Positions 11,001 to 46,172 of a stretch of 64,000 nt of DNA are shown piece by piece. Under the pieces are notes generated by a model that saw only the letters and a program-made list of their open reading frames with translations, was not told where the DNA came from and made no database searches. The position numbers and the translations under genes are program-made. The stretch comes from Octopus vulgaris. Lineage: Eukaryota. Location: NCBI GenBank assembly GCA_951406725.2, contig OX597836.1, forward strand, positions 9,672,001 through 9,736,000. Direction: 5' to 3'. Position 1 is the stretch's first letter, and each line of letters begins with the position of its first letter.

Positions 11001-11760
11001 CTATGCTGAGGGGTACATTCTTCACCCGGGAGGGTCTTTGTATTTATGAGCAACCCTGCATCCCGCTGTCTGGTGAGGATGAAGTCTATTTGGCTAGCGG
11101 AGTCCCCTGACTGATAGGTTATAAGGTGGCAGTCTGGCTTCCTGAAGTTAGTGTTGCAGATTAAAAGGTTACATGCATCACAGAATTCCAGTAGTCAAGT
11201 TCCCTCATCATTTCGGGTGCCAATACCATGGCCACCGTGTACCCCAGTAAAGATACCCGATTCCCGCCCAACATGCCCATTAAATTCTGCAGCCACAAAG
11301 ATGAGGTTCTTGCCACTCGTCTTTGGGGTAGCCTATAGAAGGGTATCATAAAAGTGGTTCTTCTGATCATTTGGTAGCCCTGCATGTGGGGCATAGGCGG
11401 AGGTAATCGTAGCTGTGCCGTTCTGTAGGACTAACTTGAGCTTGAGCACCCTATCGCATACCCTGACAACCTCTATGACCTTATCCACCCATTTCTCCGC
11501 AAGGAGAATGTCTACACCACCTACACCATCCATGTTACCATGCCAGAAGACTTTATATCTATGTGTCTTGCCTTTGAGGACCCTAGCTGAAGCACCTCTC
11601 CATCTTACCTCTTGTATGCAGCATACATCAACCCGTCTTCTTTCAAGCATCTCTACAATCTCACTAGACCTACCTTTCAGTGTACCAACATTGACAGTGC
11701 CAAATCTGAAAACTGAGAAGGTAATGTGGGGTGAAGTTTGGGGAGGAGGGATGTAATTCA
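8091..11760 (-). mobile_element. Near full-length RTE-clade LINE (APE endonuclease + RT), disrupted by stops and frameshifts
   Basis: GTVNVGTL..VDVCCIQEVRW, KAPGPSGI, NYRGIKLL, KAFDRVP, GVHQGSALSPLLF, LLYADDL, FRYLGD, LRWYGHV; 3' UTR ending in (GAT)n at 8091. Confidence 0.95.
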
Positions 11761-11829
11761 GTGCCTGAAAAGAAGAGGGTTGTTGTGGTGATCACTTTTT
11801 AGGCATTTTTCATATATATATTAATAAAA

Positions 11830-14580
11830 GGATTTCCAACCTTGTCTGATTTTCACGTTTTATTTACAATCTTATAATGATATATAATATAATATAATAA
11901 AATAAAATAAAATAAGATAATAGAATGTTAAATGTTCATTCTGATTGAACTAGTACTTTCATGCATTAAATTCTGCAATCTTCAGGTTCATGAAGTAGTG
12001 GTGACAGTCATGCTTCACAATTTTGGCTGTAACGAGATGATTGAATCTGTGCCTTAAATACAGCTGTGTGGGCTCCATATTGTTAGGTTTTGCAAACTGT
12101 ATTCTGACCAATCAGTGTGTAGTATCACTCAATTACTCAAGCTGATTGGTTTAGGCGTCACGCTTTGTTGGACATGTCAAGAGTCCTGTATCTTAACCCT
12201 GGCTGAGGCAGCAATTGTTGGGCTATTTTTAGAAATGTTGTAAATAGCCTTTGTCAGAGATTTTTATATTTTTATATTTCAATTGTCATCATCATCATTG
12301 TCAGCACCTTAATTATTGTTGCTAGTGGTGATGGTGGTGGCAATAGAACTTTTAACCCTAAATAAGATAATTTTCCTGCTATCTAAGTATTATTATTATT
12401 GCTTATTTAGCTTGGGTTCGAATTTATCAATAAAATTCTTTTCTTTGATTTCCTCTCGATTTTACTTGGGCAGTGTAATTTGTAGAATGGAAATATTATA
12501 TATATTTTCCAACCACATGTTGCTAGGTGGTTACTCAAAGGTATCTGACGGACCTCTGGGTCTCTAATTTGTTGTCGGTATACACGTGAGCGTTCTGATA
12601 GTGCATTTCCCGTCTGACCTACATATATTTCTTCACAATTTGGGCATTTGATGCAGTAAATTAAATTTCTGCTTTTGCAGTTCATATTCGCGTTTGTGAA
12701 TATTTTCCCGGTTTTTGTGTTTATATATTGGCCGGTATGTATGAATTGGCATGTGCCACAACGGCTATCATTGCATTTAGATACAGTGAATGTTTGGTCT
12801 TTGTTGCTAAGGTCAAATTTTGCCTTTGTTAGTAATTTTTTCAAGTTTTTAGGCTATCTTTTACTAGGAACCATAGCTCGATCCGTGATTATGTCTTTTA
12901 ATTCATTACTTTGGGTAATGATTGGTAGGTTTGCTTTGGCAATGTTGAAGATATTCTGGTGACATGGGTTGTGTGTCACTATGAATGGTATGACTTGTTC
13001 TTGTTTTCCTCTTCCTTGGGTTGTCCTAAGTTGTTGTATGGATATTTTTATAGCCCGTTGTATGCCATTTTCTATAAGTAGAGATGGGTATTTTTGTTTG
13101 TGCAAAAATTCTCTTAGTTCTGTTAGGCGTTTTTTCCTGATATTTGCATCGTCTATAATGGTACAAATTCTTCTGGCTAGGCAGTATGGGATGTTGCGTT
13201 TTGTATGTGGTGGATGGCATGACTTAAAATTTAGGTATTGATGTGTGTCTGTGTGTTTATAGTATATATCTGTGGTGATGGTGGTGTCTTTTTTAATTAT
13301 CATTATATCTAGGAATGGCAATTTGGTACTACTCATCTCCTTTGTAAATTGGAGAGATGGGTGTAGGTTGTTCAGGAGGATATTGAACTCTTCCAGAGTA
13401 TTTAGAGATTCTGTCCAGATTATGAAGCAGTCGTCAAGGTATCTCTTCCATGCCTTTTCAATAACTTTCTAAATCCAGTGCCATAGTTTACCTCCACCTC
13501 TTGGTAGAGTTGTTGTTCTAAGTATCCCATTACAGAGTTGGCATAAACGGGAGCAAACCTCGTTCCCATCGCCGTGCCTCTAATTTGGATGTAATTCTTT
13601 CCATTGAAGAAGAATGTGTTGTTTTCTAGAATAAGTTTGACTGTGTCTAATATAAATGGTACTGTGAATCTGCTGGGAATCACTTCTCTATGTTTTTCTA
13701 ACCAGTATTTAATCGCCTTTATTCCTAAATCGTGTGGAATATTGGTGTAGAGGCTTACCACATCAAAACTTAGTAAAACTGAATTTGTTTCTGTTGTTTT
13801 GGGAAGATGGGACAGGAAGTCGATGTCATCCCTGATGAAACTGGGTATGTAAGTACATAGTGGTTTCAAAACAATGTCAATAAAATTGCTTAGACGGTGG
13901 GTAGGGCATGCTGGACCAGCTATAATAGGTCTAAGTTTTAGGTCTTTTGGATGTAGTAATTTTATGTACTCACTTTCTTGTTCTTTTACTGCCTGTTGAA
14001 TATCTTTTGATTTATGTATTTTCGGTAAGCCGTAGAAGTTGCTGGGTTTTGGTTCGAAATTGGTGATGTAGTCTCTTTCATTATCGGTAAGTGAGTTGTA
14101 GTGTTTTGAGATCAGGTTGTTGATCTTTTTCATGATGTGGTGGTCTATATTTGAGGGTATTTCACAATAGAAGGTTGTGTCCTTCAGTTGGTCCTCAACC
14201 AAATCCTTATAGTATTCGGTATCCATAATAACAATTGCACCACCTTTATCTGCTTGTTTAATTATTATTGTTTGATCGTTTTGTATACGTTTACATGCAG
14301 ACATCTCTGATTTGTTAATGTTTGGCCTAACATTGGTATTGCGTCTAAGGGGAAATTTAGACAGGATATCAATGTATTGGTCAAGGTAGTTATTTCTTCC
14401 TTTTGGTGGGGTGAAATTTGATTTATTCCTTACTAGGGATTCATCAATCTCATTACTTTTGTTAGCGAAGAATTCTACAAGTCGTAATTTTTGACAGAAT
14501 TTTTGGATATCCTCCTTTAATTCTTGGTGGTTGGCTGTTGGTGTAGGTATGAATTTCAGTCCTTTTGACAGAAGTTGGAT
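11830..14580 (-). mobile_element. Penelope-like retroelement (Neptune-like): RT + GIY-YIG endonuclease with 3' pseudo-LTR
   Basis: LLSKGLKFIPTP, ADKGG, FYGLPKIHK, FDVVSLYTNIP, GTAMGT, LPFLD, a C-x4-C-x2-C linker and LIYCIKC..YVGQT. One frameshift (~13445) and one in-frame TAG (12854-12856). Confidence 0.92.
11946..11990 (-). ncRNA. Minimal type I hammerhead ribozyme in the Penelope pseudo-LTR
   Basis: tgaac-CTGAAGA-ttgca-gaatttaa-tgcat-GAAA-GTAC-TA-gttca. Complete core, stem I tgaac/gttca, palindromic stem III AGTACT. Same strand as the element ORF. Confidence 0.8.
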
Positions 14581-15559: not shown

Positions 15560-17880
15560 GTGAATTTCCGTGTAGTCATTCGAATGCTATTTAAAAATTT
15601 ACGGAAAAGATGTCGAAGACCGCATGGAAATATACACTCTGAACCCACCGCACTTTAATGTAAAGGACCACAAATCTGATTTCAATATTAATTCGACTAT
15701 AAGATTAATTTGTTCAAACAAGTCGGACGTTGCCAGAATCAGTCAAAATATATTTGACAGAATTATACCTATAGTGAAGAAAAAACTCAATTGTAACCTT
15801 TGGTTTAGCACAGGAGAAGTTATAACTTGGTTCTCATTTACTACCAAATAAGGCCAACTTGTCCTTACAATTTGACATTAATAGCTATTATGCATCTATA
15901 CTACCGATTATATTAAATAAAGCTATAATTTTAGCTAGAAGTCTCTCTGATATTACACCACTTGAAATTGATATAATACTACTAGCTATAAAAACACTTA
16001 TCAAATTTAATGCTAAATTATGGTGCCATGCTGCAAATAATAATTTATTTGCTATCACCATGGGATCCTCTGATTCTGCACAAATTACTGACTTGGTAGG
16101 CTTATATCTATTACAAAAGATCAGACGATGTTTCTCTTCTCTCAAAGGAAGATTATATAGAGACGACACTATCCTGGTATATAATGGCTGATCTAAAAGA
16201 AAAATAGGGAAAATGAGGGAAGAACTGCGTAAATTTTATAAAACCTTTGGTTTATCTATTACCTTTGAAAAAAGCTATTGTAAAGTAAATTTCTTAGATG
16301 TAACTCTGGACCTAAATACCTCTACTTATTCTCCTTTCCATAAACCTAATGAATTCCTCAAATATATAAACATTCATTCTAACCACCATGTATCATTACT
16401 TAATAGCATTGTAAATAGTATATCTATTAGAATCTCAGATCTAGCCTATAATGAAGAAATATTCAATAATCATGCAAGCTATTATAAGCAAGCTTTAGGT
16501 GCAGGTGGATTTAAACAAAATATTAAATATATAAAAGACACAAAACTTAAGATTTATATAACACAAATGGAACTAAACCAAACTACACATAATACTAAAC
16601 TAAGAAATACAGCTAACCTTACCTCTAATAATAATAATATTCAATCAATACAAAAAGATGAAACCTCTGTAAAACATGACAAAAAACTTAGAAAATGTTA
16701 TGTTAGACATAGAATCAAATATAGTAATAACAAAAAACATTCAGGAAATACTTTGCAAATTCCAAAATCAGTATATAACTATGATAATTTACGTAGTAGC
16801 AGTGAAAATAGGGAAATAATTTGGTACACACCCCCATTTTCAAAAAATGTTAAAGGATTAGCAAAACAATTTCTAAACATAGTCAAAAATAGCTTTCCTA
16901 ATAATTATAAGTATCACCATATTTTAAATAGATCAACAATGAAAATATATTTTTCTACATTGCCGAACATAGGATCAATTATCACCAGCTCTAATAGACG
17001 AAAACTTAATAAACATAAAAATAGTTTAAGAAATAATAATAACAACAATAATACTAGTAATGAAACAGACACTAGTCCTGAATACCAAATAATACTCAAC
17101 ATAATACTAGTTCAATAGATATCATTACGAGAATACATAGCAATACTATAACATTAACAAAATCTCAAAATTCCAATAATCATACATCTCAAAATATACA
17201 ATATGATTTGGGTAATCCAGTGCCACAATCTAATAACAATAACACACAAACTGTAAATATACTTGATTCTATTATAAATGGTTCCCCAACAAATTCAAAT
17301 ATAACACCACACACCATAACAAATAATCATAACAGTATTAAATATTATACCACAGAAAAGAAATATACAACTAAATATCGCACATCATCATCATCATCAT
17401 CATCATCGTTTAGCGTCCGTTTTCCATGCTAGCATGGGTTATGAAAAAAAATTATGTCCTTTAGAAGGCAAATGTAGCTGTTCAACGTGATATATAAGTG
17501 CACTGTTACAAAAACTAATAACTCAAACAATGTGGTATATATATATAGGGAGCCCTATTAACTTTAAACGAAGGTCTTTAGCACATATACATTCATTTAA
17601 CCCGAATATAACGAGTAACACTACTTCATTGGCGACATATATACATAAACTCAAACAAAAAAATGTTAGCTATAAATTATCCTGGTCGGTCATAGACTCA
17701 GCTCCACCATATACACATATGTCTTCTATCTGCCGTCTTTGTACAAAAGAATTGTTACACATATTATTATATAAACAAAATAATTTAATTAATTGCCAAT
17801 CGGAAGCGTTATCCACATGTAGACATAGGTTTTATATAACTTTTAAACACTATAAGAGATCAAGTAAAAATTCACATTAA
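15560..17880 (+). mobile_element. Degenerate Penelope-like retroelement (Naiad-like) RT + GIY-YIG
   Basis: KDHK..F, QFDINSYYASI, TMGSSD, LYRDD, VNFLDVTLDL, IIWYTPPFS, CPLEGKC, YIGS...FKRR, CRLCTKE; several frameshifts and stops. Confidence 0.85.
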
Positions 17881-18366
17881 TATCTTATTTTTCACATCGT
17901 GGTATCATCATAACAGTAGGATTGTTACAAGTAAGAAAAATGAAAACTGAATTTGAATTATTTTGAGTATACACATATTCACATAGTATAAATTATCCAT
18001 TAGATGAATGCCAGAAATATGTCTTCATGAAATTTGAACCTGTACACCTCTAAAGTACAATAAATTGATTTTAAATATAATAATTTAAATATTACATTAA
18101 TTTACTCTATATTGGGTCAGTAAACGGCTATTTTTATATTTGCATAAAGTATAACAATGACATCATCCAGTCTTGTATATACAACTATAAAAGGCAAAAA
18201 TTTAACTACTTTATTTTCTGCATTTATGGATCACACATTGAAGAGAACAGAATTATGGAATTTATATTTACACATAGCCATTATGGATTACCACAGTGGA
18301 TTTTACCATGGATGTATATTACCTTTGAAAATATGCTGTGTGTGAGAAGACCCGGCAGGACAAGTG

Positions 18367-18781
18367 AGACCCGCTTTAGTGAATTGAAAAGGAGTGATGT
18401 TTCATCAGGACAATGCACGACCCACACTGCAAAGATCACATCACAGAAGATCAAAGAGCTTGGTTGGGAAAAAATTCCTCATCCACCTTATTCTCCCGAC
18501 CTTGCTCCTTCAGACTACCATTTGTTTCGTAGTTTACAGAATCATTTGGAGGATATAACTTTCGCAAGTCAGGAAGAGGTCGAAGCTGACATTTCAGAGT
18601 TCTTCGCTTTGAAACCAAAAGAGTTTTACATTGATGGGATTAAAAAGCTTTTAAATAGATGGAAGAAAGTCATAGATAATCAGGGAAAGTACATTGATGA
18701 TTAATTTTCAATTAAATATAACATTTGATCACTTGTTTTCTTCATTCAAAATTCGGACAGAACTTATGGGTTGACCTGATA
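18367..18781 (+). mobile_element. Mariner (DD34D-type) transposase 3' fragment with right TIR
   Basis: FHQDNARP, HPPYSPDLAPSDYHLF, RW..VIDNQGKY; ends gaacttatgggttgacctga-TA. Confidence 0.9.
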
Positions 18782-19087: not shown

Positions 19088-19312
19088 GAAAGTTTTCCGG
19101 TTGATAACTCTCTGTACTGCCTCTCTTTCCCTTCAAACAGCAATGAAACATGTCATGGAAGTTCACAACATGCATAAAAACTAGAAAAACAATATCTTCC
19201 CATTGTAAACATTAGTGTCATGTGTCTGTGCACGATCATATATCACTCAATGACAGGACATACATTTGACTGCATTAAAATCATCTATTTATCTATCTAT
19301 CTATCTATCTCA

Positions 19313-19345
<33 letters not shown>

Positions 19346-19346
19346 G

Positions 19347-19790
19347 TGAATGTTTTAAAAAAAGATGGGTGAATGTAGCAAGGATGGCACATATGAATGA
19401 CGAAGCCACCTTGACTATGATTCTATGAATCGTAAAAATTAATACAGAGAGTTGCTTATTTGCAAAAAAAAAAAGAAAAAAGAATATAACATGTGACTTC
19501 ATTGACCGAGGTTACCGTGGTCTTTTCCGTAGGCTTTTCTTTCCACGGGTAAACCTCACCTGTCCTCCCCTTTACACTTCATATTGACATTTCTTTTATA
19601 ACGATCCCTATTGATCAACCCCCCTCCCTTTTTTGTAAATTTTATCCCCCCCTTTTTTGTCCTCTTTCTTTCCTTTTACAATCCCTTTTGATCGAAAACC
19701 AAACCGCCTTTTTTTACCCCCAAAAGAAAAGCTCTACCTTGTAATTTGTCCTGTCAGTGTGCAGCCCTGTGTGACTATTAAAGAAACATA
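19347..19790 (+). mobile_element. 3' fragment of an L1/Tx1-like LINE within a (CTAT)n microsatellite
   Basis: C-terminal CFKKRWVNVARM...IL* followed by a C/T-rich 3' UTR and tail gccctgtgtgactattaaagaaac. Flanked on both sides by tatctatctatctcaatc. Confidence 0.6.
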
Positions 19791-19822
19791 TCTATCTATC
19801 TCAATCAATCTATCTATCTATT

Positions 19823-19998
19823 AAAAGGAGTGATGTTTCATCAGGACAATGCACGACCCACACTGCAAAGATCACATCACAGAAGATCAAAGAGCTTGGT
19901 TGGGAAAAAATTCCTCATCCACCTTATTCTCCTGACCTTGCTCCTTCAGACTACCATTTGTTTCGTAGTTTACAGAATCATTTGGAGGATATAACTTC
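19823..19998 (+). mobile_element. Local duplicate of part of the mariner fragment at 18387-18563
   Basis: Near-identical sequence including the same frameshift (gcacgacccacact). Confidence 0.9.
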
Positions 19999-20489
19999 AT
20001 ATCCTAGTGATATGTTCTGCTATCGACATGTTTGTAAAGAATCAATTGTGCTAGTCTAGAGGAGTGGCCATGGTTGTTGATTGTCTAGTTTAGCTGTAGT
20101 GTGAAAGCATGTGTCTTGGTGGTTAGGGCATTTGGTTCATGATTGTAAAGTCGTGAGTTCAATTCCCAGTGACAGGTTGTGTCCTTGAGCAAGACACTTT
20201 ACAGTAGTACCTGTTAAGGGTACACGCGTCTGTGGTGTGCTCAGCCACTTGCACATTAATTTCACGAGTAAGCTGTTCCGTTGATCGCATCAGTTGGGAC
20301 CCTCGTCATCATAACCGATGGAGTGCTCCTTAGTTATAGTAGCAGCAGTAGAGAAAGATAGCAATAATGACAATAGATTAATTGTGGCATTTGGAGAGGA
20401 ATGAGGAATGTGAAGGGCTGCTAATTGTGGAATTTAAAGGGTCATTAATTGAGGCCAGGATTGAGGAGTGACTGTGGCTGCTGGTCATG

Positions 20490-20681
20490 TCTTCTTCTTC
20501 TTCTTCTTCTTCTTCTTGTGGTAAAAGAGTACAGCGGGGGTTCATCCTCCCCCACCCGCCGGAACCTCTTGGAGCTTGGGTGCTTTTGTTGCTCAGTAAA
20601 CACTCACAATGCCTGGTCTGGGAATCGTTCTTATGACCGCCGTGAGTCCGCTGCCCTAACCACTGGGCCATTGTGTCTCCA
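20490..20681 (-). mobile_element. tRNA-derived SINE, third family (head ggaggcgcaatggcccagtggttagggcagc)
   Basis: A-box-like head and (GAA)n tail; homologous to 30770-31077. Confidence 0.7.
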
Positions 20682-21139
20682 CTCATGTTGTTGTTGTTGT
20701 TGTTGCTGCTGCTGCTGCTGCTGCTATTGTTGCTGTAGCAGTTTTTGTTGTTGAAGGGGGTAGTTGGGGAAAATACATGTTGAAGCTTTACAAATGTCCT
20801 GTGGATTAATTTAAATTGTTCTGCATCTGCTTCTCTGATTGGTTATTGAACTGTCTGAGTGTTCCTTCAGCAAAGTAATTCAATCACAAAGCGCCAATGG
20901 TTTCGGTCTGGGGAAGACAAAACCATGTGATTATGAGAATGTTGATTTTCCTCTCAGGTTACTTTAGTTTATTGTAGACATGTGCAACGATGTGCAACGA
21001 TGTGCGCCCAATAATACTTTATTTGTTCCACATCCTCGCATTGTTTTCTTTTTGTTTTCTTGTTTGGATTAACTATATATATATATATGTGTGTGTGTGT
21101 ATATATATATTTATATATATGTATATGTATGTGTGTGTA

Positions 21140-21595
21140 TATGTTTGTGTGTCTGTGTTTGGCCCCCGAACATCACTTGACAACCAATGCTGGTGTGTTT
21201 ACATCCCCGTAACTTCGCTGTTCAGCAAAAGAGAACCGATAGAATAAGTACTAGGCTTACAAAGAATAAGTCGTGGGGGTCGATTTGCTCGACTACAGGT
21301 GGTGAGCTGGCAGAAATGTTAGCACACCGGGCGAAATGCGTAGCCGTATTTCATCTGCTGTTACGTTCTGAGTTCAAATTCCGCCGAGGTGGACTTTGCC
21401 TTTCATCCTTTCGGGGTCGATAAATAAAGTACCAGTTTCGCACTGGGGTCGATGTAATCGACTTAATCCCTTTGTCTGTCCTTGTTTGTCTCCTCTATGT
21501 TTAGCCCCTTGTGGGCAGTAAAGAAATATATACAGGCGGTGCTCCAGCATGGCCGCAGTCAAATGACTGAAACAAGTAAAAGAGTAAAAGCGTAA
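21140..21595 (+). mobile_element. Nested SINEs: a gagctggcagaa-type SINE (21298-21529) inserted into a second SINE
   Basis: Host SINE body is interrupted; the flanks tacaggtggtg / tacaggcggtg look like a target duplication. Confidence 0.8.
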
Positions 21596-21754
21596 AAATG
21601 AAACCTACTAAAATGTTTCAGATGAAAAGTTATCAGTCACTTCCGCATTTAAGAGGACAAAAGTAGCCGTCAGTTAACAGGCATGGCCTGTTTCACTGTA
21701 GTTTGGAAGGAAAGAGACGCAATACAGCGAGTTATTAAGTAAGAAACTTTCACA

Positions 21755-21787
21755 ATGAAGAAATGCCCAAGAACTAGATTTCACCCA
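21755..21787 (+). CDS. First coding exon of glycosyltransferase paralog B (MKKCPRTRFHP)
   Basis: ATG AAG AAA TGC...CCA|GTAAGT phase-0 donor. The upstream ~70 nt are homologous to the reverse complement of 19088-19155. Fits the acceptor at 24543. Confidence 0.75.
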
Positions 21788-21849
21788 GTAAGTAAATATA
21801 TTGTTGGTTTCTCCACACGCAACACACACACACACTCACACACACACAT

Positions 21850-22211
21850 TCTCTTATTTGTTTCAGTCATTTGGCTGCGGCCATGCTGGAGCACTGCCTT
21901 TAGTCAAACAAATCGACCCCAGGACATATTTTTTGTAAATTTAGTACTTATTTATCGGTTTCTGTTTGCTGAACTGCTACGTTATGGGGATGTAAACAAA
22001 CCCACATCAGTTGTCAAGCAATGGCGGGGGGACAAACACACACACACATATATACATTCTTTTATTTGTTTCAGTCATTTGACTGCGGCCATGCTGGAGC
22101 ACTGCCTTTAGTCGAACAAATCGACCCCAGGACATATTTTTTGTAAATTTAGTACTTATTTATCGGTTTCTGTTTGCTGAACTGCTGCGTTATGGGGATG
22201 TAAACAAACCA
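21850..22211 (-). mobile_element. Tandemly duplicated SINE 3' half
   Basis: 21853-22002 is repeated at 22061-22211. Confidence 0.85.
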
Positions 22212-23975
22212 AATGCAAACATGTTCTGGTTTTTATTGACAATGACTACCATTAGCAATAAATGTTGCATTGATAAATAAAAGGTATTGATTAGTTTTTC
22301 CATTAGTCTAATACATGATGACTTTTTGAATTGTAAAGTAAAACCCAACGGATAAAACAAGTGTTTGTTTGGGAAATGCCAGCATAGGCCTCAAGAGACA
22401 GTCATATTTAATGTCCCCCATCAAAACTAATGTATTTTGTACAATAAGTACCTTTTTAAAGGTCACTAATAATCATATGTACATTTTACAAATCCATTTG
22501 AAAATTTTGAAAGGTCGGCAACCTTCATTTCTTTTTAAAACACATAATTATGTTACATTAGTTAAATTTGATGGTCAGCTTTCAACATTATTATTAATAT
22601 ACATTAACCACACTGAAATCACCTATTTATCCTTATCTATAGATTAAGAGGGCTTAAGATGGGGCTAGGCATTGTCTTGTCTAAATAAAGAAAGTCTCCC
22701 AAAATAATAAGTTGTATTATTACAGATCATTGTGGAAACTTCTTTGTGGTTACTTAACCTGGTAGAAATAACAAACAATTATATTATTAGTTAGAAATGA
22801 TGGTCAGCCTTCAACAACATTATAAGTATCATGATAATCTTCTACCTCCCTGTTTTGAAGCCTGTTATCTTCCTTTATATTCATTCTTCTATGATGATCC
22901 ACTTAGTTCTGACATATATCCTTACAAGAATTTAAACTCTTAACATAAGTAAACCCTGTGCTTGTGTGTTTAAATGGTTCAAAGCTGTATTAGCTATTTG
23001 TTTCATGTATGTATCCAGTACATACTGTTATTTTGTTTTTGTTTTGGCCCTTGTCATCTCTGGTTGTGCACATCCATGATCAAAGGCATTCAAGCTATAA
23101 TTGTCCAGCATGTCTTGAATTTGGACTTGGTGTATTTAGGATTATTAAACAACTCTTCTCTCTCTCTCTGATGAAGAGTTCAGCCCAAAATGTTAGACTT
23201 GTCTTCTTCCTCATGCCATATATATTTATTTTATTAAACATTTTGTATTTCTATTTGCTGATGTTGGCCACTAATAGTTTCATCATACTCTAATGCTTTG
23301 ATATCATGGACTAAATCTTTCAATTTATTAAGCTGGTGGAAAGTGAAGTAAATTTATCTGCTATTTCTGTCAGGTTGAATGTGCACATAGAGGTTCCCAT
23401 GTTGGCATGTATATACATAGTTTACTATATTTTGGTGTTCCTTCCTTAATTTATATCACAATCTTTGGATCTCTTACCACAGGAGACTACAATAATTGAG
23501 TGATGCTCGTGTGGTTAATATTAATTTATAATGATGTTAAATGCTATAATTACTAGATGGAAAATATGAGCAGGAAGGAATGATATTTTGCAGATGCATT
23601 GTTAGGGAAGATTGATTATGCAAAATGTTTTTGAAGGTAGGTGTATCAAGAACTATACCACTCCTGCAAACTATATCAATGTTCTTTGATTGCTATTCAT
23701 GATATGTGCAATCCTGTTACCTTTCCCAAAATATTATTGAATATAATTTCTATTTTAACAGCATAGTTATGAAATAAGATAGATGCATGTATTGGCAGAC
23801 ATCTCCATTTAACCCTTTCGTTACCAACCCGGCTGAAACCGGCTCTGGTTCTGTGTACAAATGTCTTGTTTTCATAAGTTTTGAATTAAAATCTTCCACC
23901 ATATACATACATAATATATATATAAAATTATATGTATAAATACATATATAAATAAAATTATATATATATACATAC

Positions 23976-24470
23976 ATCATCATCATCGTTTAACGTCCAT
24001 TTACCATGCTGGCATGCGCTGGACAGTTCGACTGGGGTTTGGGAAGCCAGGGGGCTGCACCAGGCTCCAGTCTGATCTGGCAATGTTTCTACAGCTGGAT
24101 GTCCTTCCTAACGCCAACCACTCCAAGAGTGTAGTGGGTACTTTTTACATGCCACTGCACAGGGGCCAGAGGAGCTGGCATTGACCAGAGGACCACCAAA
24201 GCCTTGTGAGTGGATCTCGTACACAGAAACTGAAAGAAGACCGTCATATATATGTGTATATTTGTGTGAGTGTGTGTGCGTGCGTGTGTGTCTGTGTAGC
24301 TTTTCCATTGCTTGACAACTAATGTTGGTGTGTTTACGTCCCCGTAACTTAGCCGTTTGGCAAAACACAGTACTAGGCTTACAAAGAATAAATCCTGGGG
24401 TTGATTTCTTTGATTATTGGTGGTGCTCCACTATGACCACAGTCACATGACAAAAACAAGAAAAGCAATA
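23976..24470. mobile_element. RTE tail element (minus) abutting a 5'-truncated SINE (plus)
   Basis: Matches the families described above. Confidence 0.8.
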
Positions 24471-24487
24471 AAAAACTATGCCATTTT

Positions 24488-24518
24488 AATCCTGAGCAAT
24501 GCTGGGTATCTCTGCTAG
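24488..24518 (+). mobile_element. Helitron-like 3' terminus (hairpin + CTAG) just upstream of the paralog B acceptor
   Basis: aatcctgagcaatgctgggtatctctgCTAG-t; same end as 6920-6950. Confidence 0.6.
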
Positions 24519-24543
24519 TATACATACTTTTTATCATTTCTAG

Positions 24544-25713
24544 ATTCAAGTTCTTGGATTCATTGCTGTGGTCAGCAGCTTCTTTCTACTGTTTGCCTGG
24601 AACCAATATTCTGCGAATAAAGAATATACAGTGACAACATTAAACAAACACAACCAAAAGTTTATAAATAATTCTAAGGAATTTCCAAATAATCAAGTGC
24701 ATCATATAAATAAGAAAACTGTAAGCAAAGAGAAACAGGAATTGGTTCAGTTAAACAACAAAACTAAATATATTATTTTCTACTGTGTTAGTCATACAGT
24801 GTGTGGAGGTTGGGCAGATAGGCAGCATGGAATAATTTCTGTATATTTAATGGCACAGGCCATGGGTCATCGTTTTGGCATCATTATTTCAAAACTTTGT
24901 AATTTTACTAATTATCTTCAACCAAACAAAATTAACTGGACAATTGACCCAAAAGAGTTGCATGGCCTAAAAAGTCGTCAACTTAATTTGATTGACAACA
25001 ATACGTACATTTCCTCTTTACAATCAGCAGACTTAGAAATGCTTTACCCTGAAGATGTCCTCTATCTGACAACAAATCTAATCTATTTTCACGCCTTGAA
25101 ACGGAATCCTCGCTACAAAGAACAACTGCATTGGGCATCAAATATGTCATATGGAAATTTATTTGCTAAAATGATGAATTTATTGTTTCGCTTCAGCGAT
25201 GATTTACAGGAAAAATTTGACAAATTCTTTGAAGTCAATATCCCCAGGCCAGATATACATCTGGTGTGTGCTCAGATTCGAATGGGACAGAACCCTAGTG
25301 TTCCAGGAGATCCCCCAAGGAATTCAATGTCAAGTATTCAGATTATCTGGAACTTGTTAAATAAGTACAACACAAGCAAGTACAAAATATTTGTGACAAC
25401 AGACTCAGAAGTGGTACAGGCGATAGCTTTTAAAAAATTTTCTCCTCAAATTGTGTACACATCAGGGGGAATAATACATATGGATCGGCCACGTAAGGAG
25501 ATGAAAAACAAGTGTGATGGTGTAAGGAAATCGTTTTTGGACCAATATATTCTGAGTGAATGTGATACGTTGATAATAAGCCGAAGTGGTTTTGGTGAAA
25601 ATGCTATGATGATGAGCCAAAAAGACAACAAAGTGTTTTATTTTAAAAAAGAAAATATAACACAAATCAGCAAAGAAAAATTTTCTGCCATCTGGCAAAA
25701 AAATTGGTTGTGA
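24544..25713 (+). CDS. Fucosyltransferase-like glycosyltransferase, paralog B, large coding exon 2
   Basis: Acceptor ttttatcatttctAG|ATT CAA GTT; intact frame; CGGWADRQHG, CAQIRMG, FVTTDS, DQYILSECDTLIISRSGFG; clear paralog of 750-1907. Confidence 0.8.
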   Translation: MQVLGFIAVVSSFFLLFAWNQYSANKEYTVTTLNKHNQKFINNSKEFPNNQVHHINKKTVSKEKQELVQLNNKTKYIIFYCVSHTVCGGWADRQHGIISVYLMAQAMGHRFGIIISKLCNFTNYLQPNKINWTIDPKELHGLKSRQLNLIDNNTYISSLQSADLEMLYPEDVLYLTTNLIYFHALKRNPRYKEQLHWASNMSYGNLFAKMMNLLFRFSDDLQEKFDKFFEVNIPRPDIHLVCAQIRMGQNPSVPGDPPRNSMSSIQIIWNLLNKYNTSKYKIFVTTDSEVVQAIAFKKFSPQIVYTSGGIIHMDRPRKEMKNKCDGVRKSFLDQYILSECDTLIISRSGFGENAMMMSQKDNKVFYFKKENITQISKEKFSAIWQKNWL

Positions 25714-27450
25714 AATAAAATATTTTTGGCACACAGAATCTGAAAGTGACATCCATGTCTTATCATCATGTTAAGATCTTAAGATACTGGATGCATAGAA
25801 TTTCATTGGTCTTTCAATAAAACAGCTTATGAGGAATAAGGTATAACATACAAACATACATAGCAATGGATTTTCCTTCAAAACCAGAATGTTTTCTTGA
25901 AATTCTACTGAAGAACTATTAAAAATCTTCAAATTTCTATAGGCAACTTATATCATTGTTTTATGCCTAATTTCCCATGAATATCTGTTTGGATACTTTT
26001 CCTGAATGATGAACCTCAGGAAGATGACGAACCAAGTTCTAGTATGGGTCCACCATCGTATACAACACTCATTTGCCTTGATACCTTTATTCCATTGATT
26101 TTATGTCCTGATGGAAATGTTCTCCATGCTAGTCACTCTCTCTCTCTCTCTCTATTTATCTATCTACCTGTCTGTGAGACTGCATGTCTGCCTATATATC
26201 CATCCATTTCTCCGTCCATCCACCCATCCATAATTCCATTCAACCAAGATCATCTCTCTGTCTAGTTGTCTATCTATCTCTCTCACTCACTCACCCACTC
26301 ACTCACTCACTCAATCAATCAATCGGTGAAACAATCAATCAATCTTTTGTACAGGAGCAATTAAGAGTTTATATATTCAAAGAAATTGAATTGTAAATAT
26401 GAGAAGAGAATAATAAATCTATATAATTACCTGCTTGTTCATTCACCTGTTATACTTTAGTTAGTTAGAGAAGTGGAGTGAGTTACAGATAGAGTAAAAG
26501 TGACAGAGAGAAAGTGAGGAAGGAGAATATGAGCAGAGAAGAAAGAAATGAGGAGCGTAATAATACATAAAGGCATCAAGTGGTTAGTTGAAGGGAGAGG
26601 CGAAGAGTGAGAGAAAAAGAGTGTTGAGAGGAAGGTGTTAATGATGTGCAGTAAAATGGGAAGGGAAAGGTAAAGAGAAAGAGATATGTTTAGGATACAA
26701 TATTTAACAGAGGGTGATGTTCTGGTGACGAGGTTAAAGAAAGTCAGATAGAGTAAGATGGACAAGGGAAAAAGTTACGCTGAGAAAGTGAAAGAGAGTG
26801 AAGTAGATAGCGTTTGTCTTGTCAGAGTAGAGATACATCGACAGCAAGAAAAAGTAGATATAAACAAACAGGTGGACTGAAATGAAATGAAATGAGCTTT
26901 GTTACCGTAAACTATAGTGATGAAGATGGTGGGGTGTTGATATTGAAATGTATATTTGTGTATTGGTTGTGTGGTGCCACGTAAAGCACTCATGTGGAAC
27001 CTCATAGAAGTGCCTATGCAGTGTCACGTAAAAGTGCATGTGCAGTGTCATGTAAAAGCACCCAACAAACTGTAAAGTGGTTGGCATCAGGAAAGGCATC
27101 CAGCTGTAGAAACGATGCCAAATTAGACTAGAAATTTGTGCAGCTTGCCAACTCTGGTTAAATCATCTAATCCATGTTAGATCCAATGTCCAAAATAACT
27201 GTCATTTTCAAACTGGCTTTTGAAACATAAAAACCTAAAGTTCTGAAGGAAGGCTTTAATTTAGATCCCTTTAAAATAAGGAGTTTGTATCATAGAGCGA
27301 AGGGCATTCTCACCTGGGTTGGTATCAATCAAATCAGTTAAATTGCTAAGGAAATTATAGAAATAGAACATTTGTCACCATTATCGGTTACCAAAACTAT
27401 TTCTAAAATGTGAAAAAGGAAAAGAAAATTAAAAAAAAAATCTAATTACC

Positions 27451-27491
27451 ATAGGCGTAGGAGTGGCTGTGTGGTAAGTGGCTTGCTAACC
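27451..27491 (+). mobile_element. 5' head of a tRNA-derived SINE, interrupted by the ORF1-only element
   Basis: ataggcgtaggagtggctgtgtggtaagtggcttgctaacc; the SINE resumes at 29608. Confidence 0.8.
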
Positions 27492-29607
27492 GTCGCTGAA
27501 GTCGCAAGTGTTTTTTTGGCGGGGAGTTGTTGCTGCTTATGTCACCTCTATTGTGAAATATTGAATTTTGAGGCTCGACTACAGGTAGGCATTTGTTTTA
27601 TATTTTTGAGGGCTTAGTGGAGTTTGTTGCTCTGTATTTAATATTTTTCAGTGAGTAATAGACTCCACTCTGCTCCGGACATTTTCCTGCCTGTGGCCAC
27701 CTTTAGAGACTCACTTTGCAGCGAGAATTGTGTTTTTGAAGAGGCGTAGTCCCTCCGCAAAAATTAATTTGTTTTGAAATTGTCTTTGTGTTTTCCACTG
27801 GATTTACCACGGAGCACCAAGGATTACCAAGGATTCTTTTTGCTAGGTATTTTACCAATTGGACATTTGGCCAGGAGTACCTTTTTTTGGCCGAAAAAAA
27901 TTAATTCCTTTGTCTGGATTTGAACTCTCTTCTTCGAGCTATCGTTTATTTAAAAAAAAAAAAGAACTTTTTTGAACTGCTATTTCTATTTTTATTTCTT
28001 CCCTTCTGTTGTGTTTTTCATTCTCCTTTTTGTGTCTTATTTTATTTCCTTATATTTTGAACTGTAATTGAACTTTGTGTTAAAATGGCAAAGGAATTTC
28101 TTGTGTGGGAGTTGACACCTCCCAAAAAATATTTAAAAGAGCTGGAGGAGAAGACCGTGATGTTGAGGACTTACTCGAAATCGCTCGACACCATAGCCGT
28201 CTTTCCGAAGGCCACAATTTTGAACGAGCTGGCAGACTACATGCCGGCCATTAAATTTATTGCAAGGGGAGTGAAATATGCAACGGTATGGTTGCTATTT
28301 GACTCCCCCCAAGAAGCTTGCGATTTTGCAAGTCAGTCCCTCGAGGGTGAGGAAATATTGTTTCTTCGAAGTTACTGTGGAAGGAAACTATTGAAGGCTT
28401 GGATCTGTGGACTGCCACCCGGAGTTGAGCCCGAGTGGATAGAGGACTCTATCCACCAGGGTCTGGGTGATAGCAGCGCCAGGCTGCTGAATGTAAAAGT
28501 GTTGCCTGCGGCTGATTGGGAGGGGCCGAAAGCTGTTTTGACCCTATGGACCCAATCAGCCAAAAGTCTGGTTTTTCCAGATTTCTTGAGGATGGCCGGG
28601 TCCAGGTATCCGGTGATGCTTGAGGGACGCCCCCCCCCCCCCAAGTGTCACCTGTGCCTGGAGACCGGCCACATTAAGAAGAACTGCCCCAGGGACCAAA
28701 GTAGGATCCTGGAGCAGGAAAAAGAGAAAGTGCACGCCGCCCCTTTATTGGAGGGGGAGACGGTGGAAGTCGTGGAGGAAGCTGCCTCCACGAAAAGAAA
28801 AAGAATGGTGAGCAACAATAGTTGCTCACCAAAGAACGTACAGACGGAGGAGGAGGATAGCGACCCCCCGCGTCTGGCGACGGAGCCCCCCGGGCTCGCA
28901 GTCTCAAAAAGAAAGAGGAAAAAGAGGAACAGAGGATGGGCGGCGAGTGTTCCTAGGCCACCGATGGAGCCGCAGGTGGGATGTGTGCCACCTGCGGATA
29001 AGGCTCCGTCAGTGGGAAGTGTGCCAATGACGGATCAGTGTGAGGCCCCTTCCTATGAAGAGGAGTGGTTTATCCTCCTTTACCACAAGGGAGGGAAGGT
29101 GAAAAAATTTTTGAACGGCTTGGATGACCGAGAATGTATGGACACGGTCTGCACAAGTAGTCTGTTATGGCCTCCGCAGGTAGTAACGGAAAATATTTTG
29201 TCAGAGGTCGCAGCAACCTTTAACAGGAAAGAATTTACTTTTCTCTTTGCAGGCCTCGACTCGTCGTCGCAGAGCTGTCTGCAGGCGGCAAGGCACTTTG
29301 CTTCGGGGACCTGACAGGGAGAATTGTTGTGAATTTATGTGCTGCCCTTGTGGCAAATTAAATGAATGAAAGAAGTTTGTAAGAGGTTTTAGTGCCTCCT
29401 TTGTGTAAGAGGTTTGAGGCCTCATATCGATTTTTTGAAAATAAAGAAAAAGGAACATTGTTTTAGAGAAGCAAAGGTCGGCGGGCGCTTTTCGTCTTCT
29501 CCCATCATCATCATTTTTGCATTACCATCATTCATATCATTAATGTCTATGTCCAGCCCGCAAAGCTGCTATCTGTGTGATGCCCTTGTGGCAAATTAGA
29601 TGAAATG
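27492..29607 (+). mobile_element. ORF1-only non-LTR retroelement (~2.1 kb)
   Basis: ~600-nt 5' UTR, one 409-aa ORF, ~290-nt 3' UTR with a duplicated tail motif gcccttgtggcaaatta(a/g)atgaa. Flanked by aagtggcttgct / aagtagcttgct. Confidence 0.7.
28085..29314 (+). CDS. L1/Tx1-type ORF1 (ZCCHC3-like) nucleic-acid-binding protein: RRM-like region + CCHC zinc knuckle
   Basis: Intact 409-aa ORF; ICGLPPGV, FPDFLRMAGSRYPVMLEGRP, then CHLCLETGHIKKNC (C-x2-C-x4-H-x4-C); basic NLS-like KRKRKKR. Confidence 0.75.
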   Translation: MAKEFLVWELTPPKKYLKELEEKTVMLRTYSKSLDTIAVFPKATILNELADYMPAIKFIARGVKYATVWLLFDSPQEACDFASQSLEGEEILFLRSYCGRKLLKAWICGLPPGVEPEWIEDSIHQGLGDSSARLLNVKVLPAADWEGPKAVLTLWTQSAKSLVFPDFLRMAGSRYPVMLEGRPPPPKCHLCLETGHIKKNCPRDQSRILEQEKEKVHAAPLLEGETVEVVEEAASTKRKRMVSNNSCSPKNVQTEEEDSDPPRLATEPPGLAVSKRKRKKRNRGWAASVPRPPMEPQVGCVPPADKAPSVGSVPMTDQCEAPSYEEEWFILLYHKGGKVKKFLNGLDDRECMDTVCTSSLLWPPQVVTENILSEVAATFNRKEFTFLFAGLDSSSQSCLQAARHFASGT

Positions 29608-29985
29608 AAGTAGCTTGCTTATGAGTCACATGGTTCTGGGTTCAATCCCACTGCGTGGAACCTTGGGCAAGTGTCTTCTATTATAGCCTCGGGCCGACTA
29701 AAGCCTTGTGAGTGGATTTCATAGACGGAAACTGAAAGAAGCCCATCGTATATATATATATATATACATATATGTGTGTGTGTGTGTGTATATATGTTTG
29801 ACCCCCCAGCATTGCTTGACAACCGAAGGTGGTGTGTTTACGTCCTCGTAACTTAGCGGTTCGGCAAAAGAGACCGATAGAATAAGTACTAGGCTTACAA
29901 AGTATAAGTCCTGGGGTCGATTTGCTCGACTGAAGGCAGTGCTCCAGCATGGCCACAGTCAAATGACTGAAACAAGTAAAAGAGA
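29608..29985 (+). mobile_element. Remainder of the interrupted tRNA-derived SINE
   Basis: Continues the consensus (...cacatggttc.gggttca.tcccactgcgtgg...) through the internal TA/TG tract to the gactgaaacaagtaaaaga tail. Confidence 0.9.
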
Positions 29986-30166
29986 ACAAGAATCTATACA
30001 ATTTGTTTTATGGAATTTTATTTTGTACATACATAATTTTCATTATCACAAACAAGTTCATTTATTTAAGTTCACTAAAACATTTTAGAAAAACTTTTTG
30101 AGTCACATTCAAGAACTTATACATATATACGCTATACATACATGGATATGTACATGTGTGCGTATA

Positions 30167-32775: not shown

Positions 32776-33982
32776 TCAAGTGGCTGTTAGTGATTTCCCA
32801 CATGTCTCGCAGTGATACACTCTTTCCTCCATGTGGCTCCGAATATGAACTACAAGATTGAAATGATCAAAGAATGATTTCCCACATGTCTCACAGTGAT
32901 ACGCTCTTTCCCCCATGTGGCTCCGAATATGAACTACAAGATTGAAATGATCAAAGAATGATTTCCCACATGTTTCACAGTGATACGCTCTTTCCCCCAT
33001 GTGGCTCCGAATATGAACTACAAGATTGAAATGATCAAAGAATGATTTCCCACATGTTTCACGGTGATACGCTCTTTCCCACATGTGGCTCCGAATATGA
33101 ACTACAAGATTGAAATGATCAAAGAATGATTTCCCACATGTCTCGCAGTGATACACTCTTTCCCCCATGTGGCTCCGAATATGAACTACAAGATTGAAAT
33201 GATCAAAGAATGATTTCCCACATGTCTCGCAGTGATACGCTCTTTCCCCCATGTGGCTCCGAATATGAACTACAAGATTGAAATGATCAAAGAATGATTT
33301 CCCACATGTTTCACAGTGATACACTCTTTGCCCCATGTGGCTCCGAATATGAACTACAAGATTGAAATGATCAAAGAATGATTTCCCACATGTCTCACAG
33401 TGAAGCCTTTTTCCTCCAGCGTGAATACGATTTCTATGTCTTCTCAGTTCGCTGTTGCTCCCGTTTGATTTCCCACACACTTCACAACAGAACGGTTTTT
33501 GCCCAGTGTGGCGTTTTTTGTGCCTTGTTAAATTACTGTCGGAGAAAAAATACTTGCCGCACACTTCGCAACAACACGGTTTCCCTCCAGTGTGGATTCT
33601 TCTGTGAATAACAAGATTGAAATGATCAAAGAATGATTTCCCACATGTCTCGCAGTGATACGCTTGTGGTGATCATACAACGGACTCTTTCGTGACGTGC
33701 AAGATGAGAATTCATCAGGAAGGACTCTCCACACACTTCGCAAGGGAAAGGCTTTTCCCCGCCATGTATTCGTTTGTGTTTCGTCAAATTACTGCTGTTG
33801 GCAAAGGACTTCACATATAAATCATACTCTGTATTTCTGTGCAATGATTTTTGTTTAGGAAATGTTTCACAACCCAAAGGCTTCTCCTCGTTGCCCTTGT
33901 ACGTCCATGTTTTTAGCTGCTGAACCTTGTAAATATTACAATCTATTCTTTTAGAATTGTCCAAATTATTATCGTGCTCCAT
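32776..33982 (-). pseudogene. C2H2 zinc-finger gene with an internal frameshift (~33680) and tandem near-identical fingers
   Basis: Acceptor tttctccAG 7 nt before ATG (33982); [26 protein letters not shown] and 7x [21 protein letters not shown]. One linker is 22 nt instead of 18. Decayed fingers continue past the stop to ~32460. Confidence 0.8.
32791..33402 (-). repeat. 84-bp coding minisatellite (7 full + 1 partial zinc-finger units)
   Basis: Units differ at only a few positions. Confidence 0.95.
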
Positions 33983-34740
33983 ATTAATTCTGGAGAAATA
34001 TTTAAGTAATATGAATACGTTATTATCCAGTTTATTTCTTGTTTTCGATATAAATCCTTAAAAATGTTTTAGCCCAAAGGCCGCGGCCATGCTGGGGCAC
34101 CACACGAAGTTCTGTTTACGGTTGTGGAAAAAAAAAAACGTCGACAGATGTGTTCTCAACTTACAACCCCCAAATTTATTTCTGAATGCGTTTTCTCCAA
34201 GTCGTATACAGATCGTCTTTTATTTCTTCGTTTGGATCCTTTCACTTTGACCGGCAGATTTTTAAAATAATTTCTTTGAAACCAAACACTTTTAAACTTC
34301 GTATACTGGTAGAATGTGTCACGTAAAACATCTTTTTCTCTTGGCTTTCTTGAGAAAATTCTGTAGTTTGTAAGCTATTTGTTTTTAAATTGCATTTCGG
34401 CAATTTCGATCAATAAATGTGGATATGGTCAGTGGATGCTGTGGCCTAAAAACCAAAACAATATTCGAGAAGTCATAAATGACCAACAGCTCATATCAGT
34501 TCCATGACAAGTTACAACGTTTATTTTCAATAAATACAAGAGCAAAGTAAAAAAAAATACAGTGCAATATATCCAGGGAAGAAAATGTGTGTGTGTGTGT
34601 GTGCATATACGTCCGAGGAGGTGGTTGCGTGTTAGCTCCTCATGTTACTTAAAGTTTAGTGAATGTGGAGAAAAGTTCACCTGCTCCCCAACAGACACAA
34701 CTCCATCCATATTTTGAGTGTTATTTCCGTTCATTTTCCC

Positions 34741-44930: not shown

Positions 44931-46172
44931 TAAGGCGGCGAGCTGGCAGGAACGTTAGCACGCCGGGCAAAATGCGTAGCCGTATTTCGTCTGCTGTTAC
45001 GTTCTGAGTTCAAATTCCGCCGAGGTTGACTTTGCCTTTCATCCTTTCGGGGTCAATTACATAAGTACCAGTTATGCACTGGGGTCGATATAATTGACTT
45101 AATCCGTTTGTCTGTCCTTGTTTGTCCCCTCTATGTTTTTAGCCCGTTGTGTGTAGTAAAGAAATAGGTATTTCGTCAGCCACTACATTCTGAGTTCAAA
45201 TTCCGCCGAGGTCAACTTTACCTTTCATCCTTTCGGGGTCGATTACCTAAGTACCAGTTATGCACTGAGGTCGATATAATCGACTTAATCTGTTTGTCTG
45301 TCCTTGTTTGTCCTCTCTGTGTTTAGCCCCTTGTGGGTAGTAAAGAAATAGGTATTTCGTCTACTGTTACATTCTGAGTTCAAATTCTGCTGAGGTCGAC
45401 TTTGCCTTTCATCCTTTTGGGGTCAATTACATAAGTACCAGTTACGCACTGGGGTCGATATAATCGACTTAATCCGTTTGTCCCCTCTATGTTTTTAGCC
45501 CGTTGTGGGTAGTAAAGAAATAGGTATTTGGTCTGTCTTTATGTTCTGAGTTCAAATTCTGCCAAGGTCGACTTTACCTTTCATCTTTTCAGGGTCAATA
45601 AATTAAGTACCAGTTACGCATTGGGGGGGGGGGGTCGATGCAATCGACGTAATCCTTTTGTCTGTCCTTGTTTCTCCTCTCTATGTTTAGCCCCTTGTGG
45701 GCAATAGAGAAATAAGAATACTTAGCATACCTAGCGAAATGCTCAGCAGTATTTCGTTTCGTCTGCCACTATGTCCTGAGTTCAAATTCCACTGAGGTTG
45801 ACTTTACCTTTCATCCTTTCGGGTTGACTAGTCCCCTCCCCTCAAATTTCAGGCCTTCTGCTTTTTGTACAAAGGATTATTATTATTATTATTATCATTA
45901 TTATTTAAGGTGGTGAGTTGGCAGAATTGTTAGCATGCCAGATGAAATGCTTAATTGTATTTCGTCTGCCGTTATGTTCCAAAGTAAAATTCTGCTGAGG
46001 TCAACTTTAGCCTTCATCCTTTTGGGGTTGATAAATTAAGTACCAGTGAAATGTTGGGGGAGTCGATGTAATTGATTAGTTCCCTTTCCCCAAATTTCAG
46101 GCCTTGTGCCTTTACTAGAAAGGATTAATATTGAGGCAGCGAGCTGGCAGAATCATTAGCACACTGGATGAA
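44931..46172 (+). repeat. Head-to-tail array of SINE bodies (four ~180-bp units, then further degenerate copies)
   Basis: Repeated gtatttcgtc...gagttcaaattc...aagtaccagtta...aaagaaatag units. Confidence 0.88.

Follow-up and report, generated by a model that had tools for sequence, protein, structure and literature searches.

We characterized a group of retrotransposons sharing one 3' tail in a 64,000-nucleotide (nt) stretch of the Octopus vulgaris genome (2.8-Gb assembly, contig OX597836.1, positions 9,672,001 to 9,736,000 of the forward strand; hereafter the window, whose own numbering is used below). In the window, the group comprises a fragment of a long interspersed nuclear element (LINE) of the L1/Tx1 type, a short interspersed nuclear element (SINE), and an element which encodes only the first LINE open reading frame (ORF1) and sits in a copy of a second SINE, the host SINE. 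A first-pass annotation had proposed a three-member system in which the LINE drives one noncoding and one protein-coding passenger. The shared, structured tail derived from L1/Tx1-type LINEs was confirmed, as were the two kinds of passenger, the SINE and the ORF1-only element, whereas the window LINE was not supported as their common driver; another LINE family, B, probably drives the ORF1-only element. Family letters A to J are labels of this analysis, and L-numbers denote individual genomic loci. The features of the three elements, all on the forward strand, are as follows.

19284 to 19345, forward: (TATC)n tract, the 5' flank and target of the family A copy.
19342 to 19787, forward: 5'-truncated copy of an L1/Tx1-type LINE of family A, with the last ORF2 codons (stop at 19426-19428) and the 3' untranslated region.
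19763 to 19776, forward: tail hairpin of the family A copy (stem 19763-19766/19773-19776, 4 base pairs [bp], 6-nt loop).
19788 to 19821, forward: (TATC)n tract, the 3' flank of the family A copy.
21297 to 21528, forward: full-length SINE with a Tx1-type tail, 232 nt, inserted into a host-SINE copy, in its 3' portion.
21504 to 21516, forward: tail hairpin of the SINE (stem 21504-21507/21513-21516, 4 bp, 5-nt loop).
27452 to 27491, forward: 5' portion of the host SINE head, whose last 16 nt (27476-27491) are the first copy of a duplicated site.
27492 to 29607, forward: full-length ORF1-only element, 2116 nt, with no ORF2 remnant.
28085 to 29314, forward: ORF1, 409 amino acids (aa), with one CCHC zinc knuckle.
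29343 to 29355, forward: internal hairpin of the ORF1-only element (stem 29343-29346/29352-29355, 5-nt loop).
29343 to 29379, forward: internal second tail plus a 10-nt stretch (29370-29379) that matches the start of a variant landing site at 9/10 positions.
29563 to 29570, forward: tail block complementary to the landing site, with one wobble position in the window copy.
29581 to 29593, forward: terminal tail hairpin of the ORF1-only element (stem 29581-29584/29590-29593, 4 bp, 5-nt loop).
29608 to 29990, forward: rest of the host SINE, whose first 16 nt (29608-29623) are the second site copy, 12/16 identical to the first.

The LINE fragment is 90 to 95% identical to 39 other best-scored family A copies, and it is part of an autonomous LINE, as had been supposed: other family A copies reach far enough to include a full ORF2, and the near-full copy L043 has an ORF1 and an ORF2 encoding endonuclease and reverse transcriptase (RT). 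The RT domain of family A scored above the Pfam cut-off, and its C-terminal part was 55 to 57% identical to family B. The ORF2 of family B matched the apurinic/apyrimidinic (APE) endonuclease (PF03372), RT (PF00078), and C-terminal zinc (PF13966) domains above cut-off, and it aligned with human L1 ORF2p at an E value of 1e-63 (residues 13 to 877) and with R2 at 1e-18; a protein search returned 15 homologues with 24 to 30% identity, none of them named Tx1. A CCHC zinc knuckle in ORF1 is a feature of the Tx1 clade. The knuckle model (PF00098) scored above its cut-off in B (24.9 bits) and below it in A (17.9) and the ORF1-only element (16.2), where the motif is visible. Besides, both LINE families exceed the threshold of target preference given in the accessible part of PMC4494074, more than 20% of flanks in one repeat type (39/43 for A and 30/30 for B). 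By these features, A and B can be placed in the L1/Tx1 group of non-long-terminal-repeat retrotransposons, Tx1 here denoting L1-group LINEs with a knuckle-type ORF1 and a target preference, not a placement in the reference Tx1 tree.

A sequence check found the three tails and the internal copy where the first-pass annotation had located them. We compared the last 60 nt of the elements by local alignment against 500 dinucleotide shuffles per direction, and the similarity exceeded that of the shuffled controls, albeit modestly (z of 2.0 to 5.0). The LINE-SINE pair gave z values of 4.1 and 5.0 (score reached by 0/500 and 1/500 shuffles), the LINE-ORF1-only pair 3.1 and 2.9 (3/500 and 5/500), and the SINE-ORF1-only pair 3.2 and 2.0 (5/500 and 17/500). 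Control ends from five other window repeats stayed between -1.4 and 1.3 in 15/15 comparisons. Random 60-mers of the window reached the three scores in 7/3000, 22/3000, and 69/3000 cases, respectively, and because of the last figure the SINE/ORF1-only pair is weak by sequence alone. The linear motif said to unite the tails is one base out of register between these two elements; what they have in common is a structure. The tail consists of a pyrimidine-rich run, a 4-bp stem with a 5- to 6-nt loop, and 11 to 16 A-rich bases, with no poly(A).

The expectation of a conserved stem-loop with covariation was borne out by 27 tails (4 from the window and 23 from other loci, hand-picked at one or two per family or subfamily), from which RNAalifold returned the same four pairs unaided. 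In this set, 91.6% of 107 stem cells were paired, against 15 to 44% in slid controls; 20 cells were altered on both sides, and 0/500 shuffles equaled the pairing and change values. The outer pair occurs as G-C (9 tails), U-A (8), G-U (5), and C-G (2), and the second pair as G-C (17), C-G (5), and A-U (2). In the family A copy of the window, a G-to-A change at 19774 breaks one stem pair, which is intact in the other 19/20 copies.

The tail extends well beyond the three window elements. A degenerate ORF2 motif had 5018 matches in the genome, and the first 30 loci together with 20 stretches chosen for variant motifs yielded 54 copies in 15 clusters. The tail was visible in 11/15 clusters; the other four have lost their 3' end or do not show it. 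Since the tail is common to this radiation, it cannot name a driver or define a trio, and used alone it can pair a passenger with the wrong LINE. The landing sites differ: A and A2 lie in (TATC)n, E in (CT)n in most of 30 loci, H and I in (ATT/ATC)n (one copy each), and B in the head of the host SINE. In the old G-like families (L321-L350), short fixed junction words lead directly into unique sequence, which means that some of the radiation is loosely targeted. Family D was located at one position of another repeat, clearly in 4/6 copies (3' junctions in L172, L176, L198, and L200), and its hairpin is the closest to that of the SINE. The terminal tail of the one family I copy (L192, about 840-879, reverse strand) is nearly identical to the ORF1-only tail, yet it lies in (ATC/ATT)n.

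Family A and the ORF1-only element use different sites. The 3' ends of family A ran into (TATC)n in 39/43 copies (18/20 in one sample and 21/23 in another), and 18 of the 29 visible 5' junctions lay inside the same repeat; because both junctions are in (TATC)n, the repeat is the target of family A and not merely its tail. The ORF1-only insertion splits the host SINE head between A- and B-box-like words. A junction pattern for the host-SINE site had 215 exact matches in the genome (control, 0), and 53,849 empty host-SINE sites were counted by exact pattern. Among 30 of these site-picked junctions that were examined, 19 carried ORF1-only tails and 11 carried LINE tails (9 of family B and 2 of family C), 10 of the latter with an ORF2 upstream. 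When ORF1-only tails were picked without the site, 17/30 were within 3 mismatches of the 16-nt site and 25/30 within 2 mismatches of its first 8 nt, and 0/30 lay in (TATC)n. Family B has 96 exact tails genome-wide, and all 30 examined were at the host-SINE site with an ORF2 upstream. Full-length family B is 5.4 kb; five full-length copies are 97.4 to 98.0% alike, and copy L105 has an uninterrupted ORF2 of 1140 aa that encodes endonuclease, RT, and zf-RVT domains. Sampling by exact pattern gave identities of 99.3% within A and 98.8% within B, values biased toward young copies. Because B and the ORF1-only family occupy one and the same host-SINE base and share the duplicated site, the driver of the ORF1-only element is likely to be B or a close relative.

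These results bear directly on the proposal that family A mobilizes both passengers via the shared tail. It draws on tails that beat shuffles and on family A being by far the commonest among the motif matches (23 of the first 30 loci), but the targets are separate, (TATC)n for A, the host-SINE site for the ORF1-only element, and loose sites for the SINE, and the tail is too widespread to single out A. For the ORF1-only element, found at B's exact site instead, the proposal is contradicted unless passenger RNA alone can redirect the enzyme of A. We consider it very improbable.

Among 32 rows in which both sides of a host-SINE insertion were visible, the two site copies agreed fully in 10 and differed at no more than 2 positions in 17, although two of the rows (the second L034 row and L106) pair ends from different insertions. 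The 5' site copies of L026-L030 have a distal portion that is subfamily-specific and stays constant whatever the 3' copy reads. A wholly target-derived 16-nt duplication was thus rejected, and the constancy implies that full-length elements carry target-like sequence at their 5' ends.

The ORF1-only element represents a retrotransposed family of its own, with many copies, 5' truncation, and target duplication, and young copies of one passenger subfamily, 97.2 to 97.7% identical, exist alongside the young full-length copies of B. A tblastn search with the ORF2s of A and B detected no ORF2 remnant in the element (best E value, 3.7). Its ORF1 is under purifying selection, with a ratio of nonsynonymous to synonymous substitution rates of 0.12 to 0.25 in 36/36 pairs (9 copies, 176 to 179 codons). 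In an ORF1 tree, 27 passenger-type rows formed one deep clade (100/100) apart from B and D; family A, whose knuckle spacing fell outside the filter, was compared pairwise only. In pairwise alignments, the passenger ORF1 had 25% identity with that of B (216 aa) and 24% with that of A (147 aa), and a protein search found one relative, an uncharacterized Octopus sinensis protein with 62% identity. At the DNA level, the window element resembled B notably only in its last 18 nt (17/18; E value, 0.034), and no match with family A was found at the 3' end.

It could be argued that the element arose recently, when a LINE of this genome lost its internal part, and that its tail reflects functionless descent, the tails of related LINEs being homologous by descent. 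However, the deep clade, the low ORF1 identity, and the selection on ORF1 argue for an old one-gene lineage rather than a fresh deletion of B. Furthermore, there is neither an ORF2 remnant nor DNA similarity beyond the last 18 nt, and stem pairs are kept while their letters change, which speaks against a functionless tail. Such an origin is therefore highly unlikely. Keeping ORF1 without ORF2, spreading on its own, and evolving under purifying selection, the ORF1-only family is a HAL1-like nonautonomous LINE. HAL1 proper derives from vertebrate L1 and has a poly(A) tail; this narrower assignment was rejected, as the passenger has a knuckle-type ORF1 and no poly(A), though it works like HAL1.

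The internal second tail was present in 15/20 ORF1-only loci. It is likely an older 3' end, behind which the tail of a stacked, truncated relative would have been captured; stacked elements were seen in L103, L116, L118, and L210-L212.

The window SINE is flanked by a duplication of about 11 nt (21294-21304 and 21531-21541), and the measurable target duplications of its family (n = 37) span 8 to 21 nt. A- and B-box-like words were recognized by eye in the SINE heads; ARAGORN made no tRNA call in the window, and Rfam gave no tRNA match for either SINE. An array of the tailed SINE at 44933 to 45710 holds a full unit and three shortened ones, and a 19-nt duplication encloses the array as a whole.

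The SINE tail gave z values of 5 to 11.5 against 11 LINE tails, and it scored higher with G (55), B (52), D (52), and I (50) than with A (36 to 44), which also argues against family A mobilizing the SINE; with B it shares 29/30 nt upstream of the hairpin. In a nonrandom sample of 104 distinct SINE 3' junctions, 39 started with GGTAT, 23 with TATA, 13 with AGAA, 28 with other words, and 1 with (TATC)n, and inspection by eye added one further TATC case (2/104 in total) and one host-SINE-site case. Thus, with 2/104 copies in TATC, family A is a poor candidate and at most a minor driver of the SINE. The junction class goes with the SINE tail variant (9:1 versus 2:36), which suggests that a few 3' RNA bases pair with the nick. 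The data on family G as a SINE driver were not decisive; its relatives are old (73 to 83%) and loosely targeted, and 1/30 was near a SINE head.

The main SINE driver might be another Tx1 family, one that targets the head of the SINE itself; this would be compatible with the explanation that we favor below. Indeed, 39/104 junctions continue with a five-letter word at head position 48, many of them with the rest of the head as well, and arrays of one full and several shortened units fit self-insertion with homologous 5' joining. Dimeric source genes explain the arrays equally well, however, since a duplication of at least 10 nt surrounded the whole array in 8/14 cases and the first unit in 0/14. 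No ORF2-bearing element was found at the SINE head among 15 candidates (1.28 Mb of loci), and the link between junction class and tail variant also tells against such a family. On balance, we give this driver an even chance.

Besides the hairpin, the tails at the host-SINE site carry a short block upstream of it, which in B complements the first 9 nt of the site exactly and in most passengers complements 7 nt exactly, at a varying distance from the hairpin. Possibly, although we regard it as rather doubtful, this 7- to 9-nt block pairs with the top strand displaced at the landing site, or else with a read-through transcript; with the same reservation, the passenger RNA would then codetermine the site and might use several drivers. 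At a one-letter variant of the site, 10/10 tail-picked copies carried the matching block variant, compared with 1/61 at the common site. Site-picked copies gave a similar picture: at the variant site (n = 30), 17 had the matching block, 6 a nonmatching one, and 7 none, while at the common site (n = 30, read by eye) 0 had the matching variant and 29 the common block. Two ORF2-bearing B relatives at the variant site (L261 and L281) also carry the matching variant, and B itself was at the variant site in 0/30 cases, although the variant makes up 13/100 empty sites (p = 0.03). On the other hand, independent events are few and related copies make the Fisher p values overstated, the site is nearly palindromic, 13/30 variant-site copies have no matching block, a similar word occurs at the corresponding tail position in family A, which does not have this target, and by eye A, D, and E have no block complementary to their own targets. 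A two-part 3' RNA code, with the hairpin as the RT handle of all families and a block pairing with the site in the SINE-targeting branch, is thus offered tentatively; it is equally uncertain whether, under such a code, LINEs and ORF1-only passengers steer by RNA-DNA pairing, the block changing with the SINE target. Seven variant-site elements (L267, L268, L272, L276, L283, L284, and L287) have the hairpin without the complementary block, and three of them match ORF1 distantly (24 to 32%), which suggests other passenger lineages.

Overall, we hold it quite probable that a shared hairpin handle, a family-dependent landing site, and a B-type driver of the ORF1-only element explain the observations. 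The 4-bp RNA hairpin with its short A-rich end is likely to serve as the handle for the RTs of about ten families, in place of poly(A), and the choice of landing site is likely set by the copying family. The ORF2 of family B or close kin (C and B') would nick the host-SINE site and copy the ORF1-only RNA in trans by target-primed reverse transcription, while the passenger's own ORF1 protein may package its RNA. The SINE appears to have taken its last approximately 55 nt from a LINE of the radiation, and it is likely copied by one or more loosely targeting families, with few 3' bases pairing with the nick. According to the accessible part of PMC4494074, the target choice of Tx1 elements is set mainly by the endonuclease, and a shared target is the argument there for Tx1-Mar driving SINEU.

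Several observations weigh against this explanation. The stem is only 4 bp long, related tails are nonindependent rows, two of four count measures were not above shuffles (172/500 and 412/500), and the common hairpin register suits families A, A2, E, and J poorly, the three A-type rows being off register because of their 6-nt loop. Passenger tail scores are close to one another for B (38), intact A (38), F (37), and I (40), so that the tail sequence alone does not appear to single out B; the passenger ORF1 is likewise equally far from A and B, and 5/30 passenger tails were not clearly at the host-SINE site. For the SINE, the junction sample consisted of 25 best hits, 30 pattern-picked cases, and by-catch, and the 23/104 TA-rich junction starts have counterparts in 3/43 family A copies, so that A stays a possible driver for those SINE copies. 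A search for LINEs with the exact SINE tail and non-SINE sequence upstream gave 151 matches, of which 30 were examined and 0 had an ORF2; the empty search at the SINE head points the same way. Hairpin recognition and trans-mobilization are, moreover, deduced from genomic footprints.

The window contains other features. Two paralogous ORFs without introns, 385 and 389 aa long (750-1907, reverse strand, and 24544-25713, forward strand) lie in an inverted duplication with 87 to 88% identity and have an N-terminal hydrophobic stretch; Pfam gave no match for the one that was scanned, and we presume that they resemble a fucosyltransferase-type enzyme. A C2H2 zinc-finger array (32776-34057, reverse strand) consists of 84-nt repeats 95 to 98% alike. 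Broken RT and endonuclease fragments with weak Pfam matches, which we take to be Penelope-like and RTE-like, are located at 12407-14580 (reverse), 15826-17880 (forward), and 8924-11791 (reverse). A mariner-like transposase fragment with a weak DDE_3 match lies at 18084-18704 and about 19820-19997, and about 180 nt of it are repeated immediately downstream of the inserted family A copy.

Animal elements of the L1 group are generally held to recognize poly(A). If true, a radiation in which LINEs, SINE passengers, and ORF1-only passengers end in a hairpin would provide an animal example of stringent recognition in this group. Sister families that share the handle and differ in target imply that RNA recognition is separable from site choice, and swaps could test handle and target, an open B ORF2 being at hand. 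In addition, a single base of a SINE that offers more than 50,000 empty sites is home to both a LINE and a one-gene passenger, a layered host-parasite arrangement which we did not find in the literature searched. Neither an octopus Tx1 aimed at a SINE, nor a Tx1-type ORF1-only element, nor a Tx1/SINE hairpin pair was described in that literature, although Repbase, Dfam, and subscription papers could hold one.

Known target-specific Tx1 elements, in the accessible part of PMC4494074, include Tx1L in Tx1D, Kibi in (TC)n, Koshi in (TTC)n, and Tx1-Mar in Mariner-N4_AMi. As in those, sister families of the octopus aim at microsatellites or at another mobile element, and as in Tx1-Mar/SINEU, a passenger can be assigned to its driver by the shared target. 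Unlike in those, the targets here are a SINE head and (TATC)n, and one passenger encodes ORF1; furthermore, SINEU has poly(A), and according to the same part of that source no LINE sharing the SINEU-1 3' end was found, whereas the octopus passengers share a structured tail with LINEs. The accessible text of PMC13282606 covers 13 recently active L1-Tx1 families, and the word "target" is absent from it.

ORF1-bearing nonautonomous LINEs are represented by HAL1 (L1), HeT-A (Jockey), and Ag-Sponge (CR1) in the accessible part of PMC5786205, whose list includes no Tx1 case. The octopus passenger resembles them in having ORF1 without ORF2, 5' truncations, target duplication, and a long-lived lineage, and it differs in its Tx1-type knuckle ORF1, its single-base target shared with the driver, and its hairpin without poly(A).

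Stringent pairs include maize and sorghum SINEs with LINE1-1_ZM, SINEX-3_CR with L1-1_CR, and L2 and CR1 pairs; a survey of 58 SINE/LINE pairs holds only three L1-tailed SINEs, all plant or algal (PMC3472496, PMC3747384, and PMC4824008, as far as accessible). The octopus SINE shows two features of such pairs, a tail taken from a LINE 3' end and a conserved stem-loop with compensatory change, here of 4 bp only. Unlike the plant and algal L1 pairs, it involves an animal L1/Tx1-type LINE, a much smaller hairpin, no poly(A), and about ten families sharing the tail. The octopus tRNA-derived SINEs OK, OR1, and OR2 (cited in the accessible parts of PMC4758252 and PMC4824008) are also short and abundant with A- and B-box-like heads, a likeness of build and not of compared sequence. 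Thus, the system is a variant that combines target-specific Tx1 elements, a HAL1-like passenger, and a stringent SINE/LINE tail.

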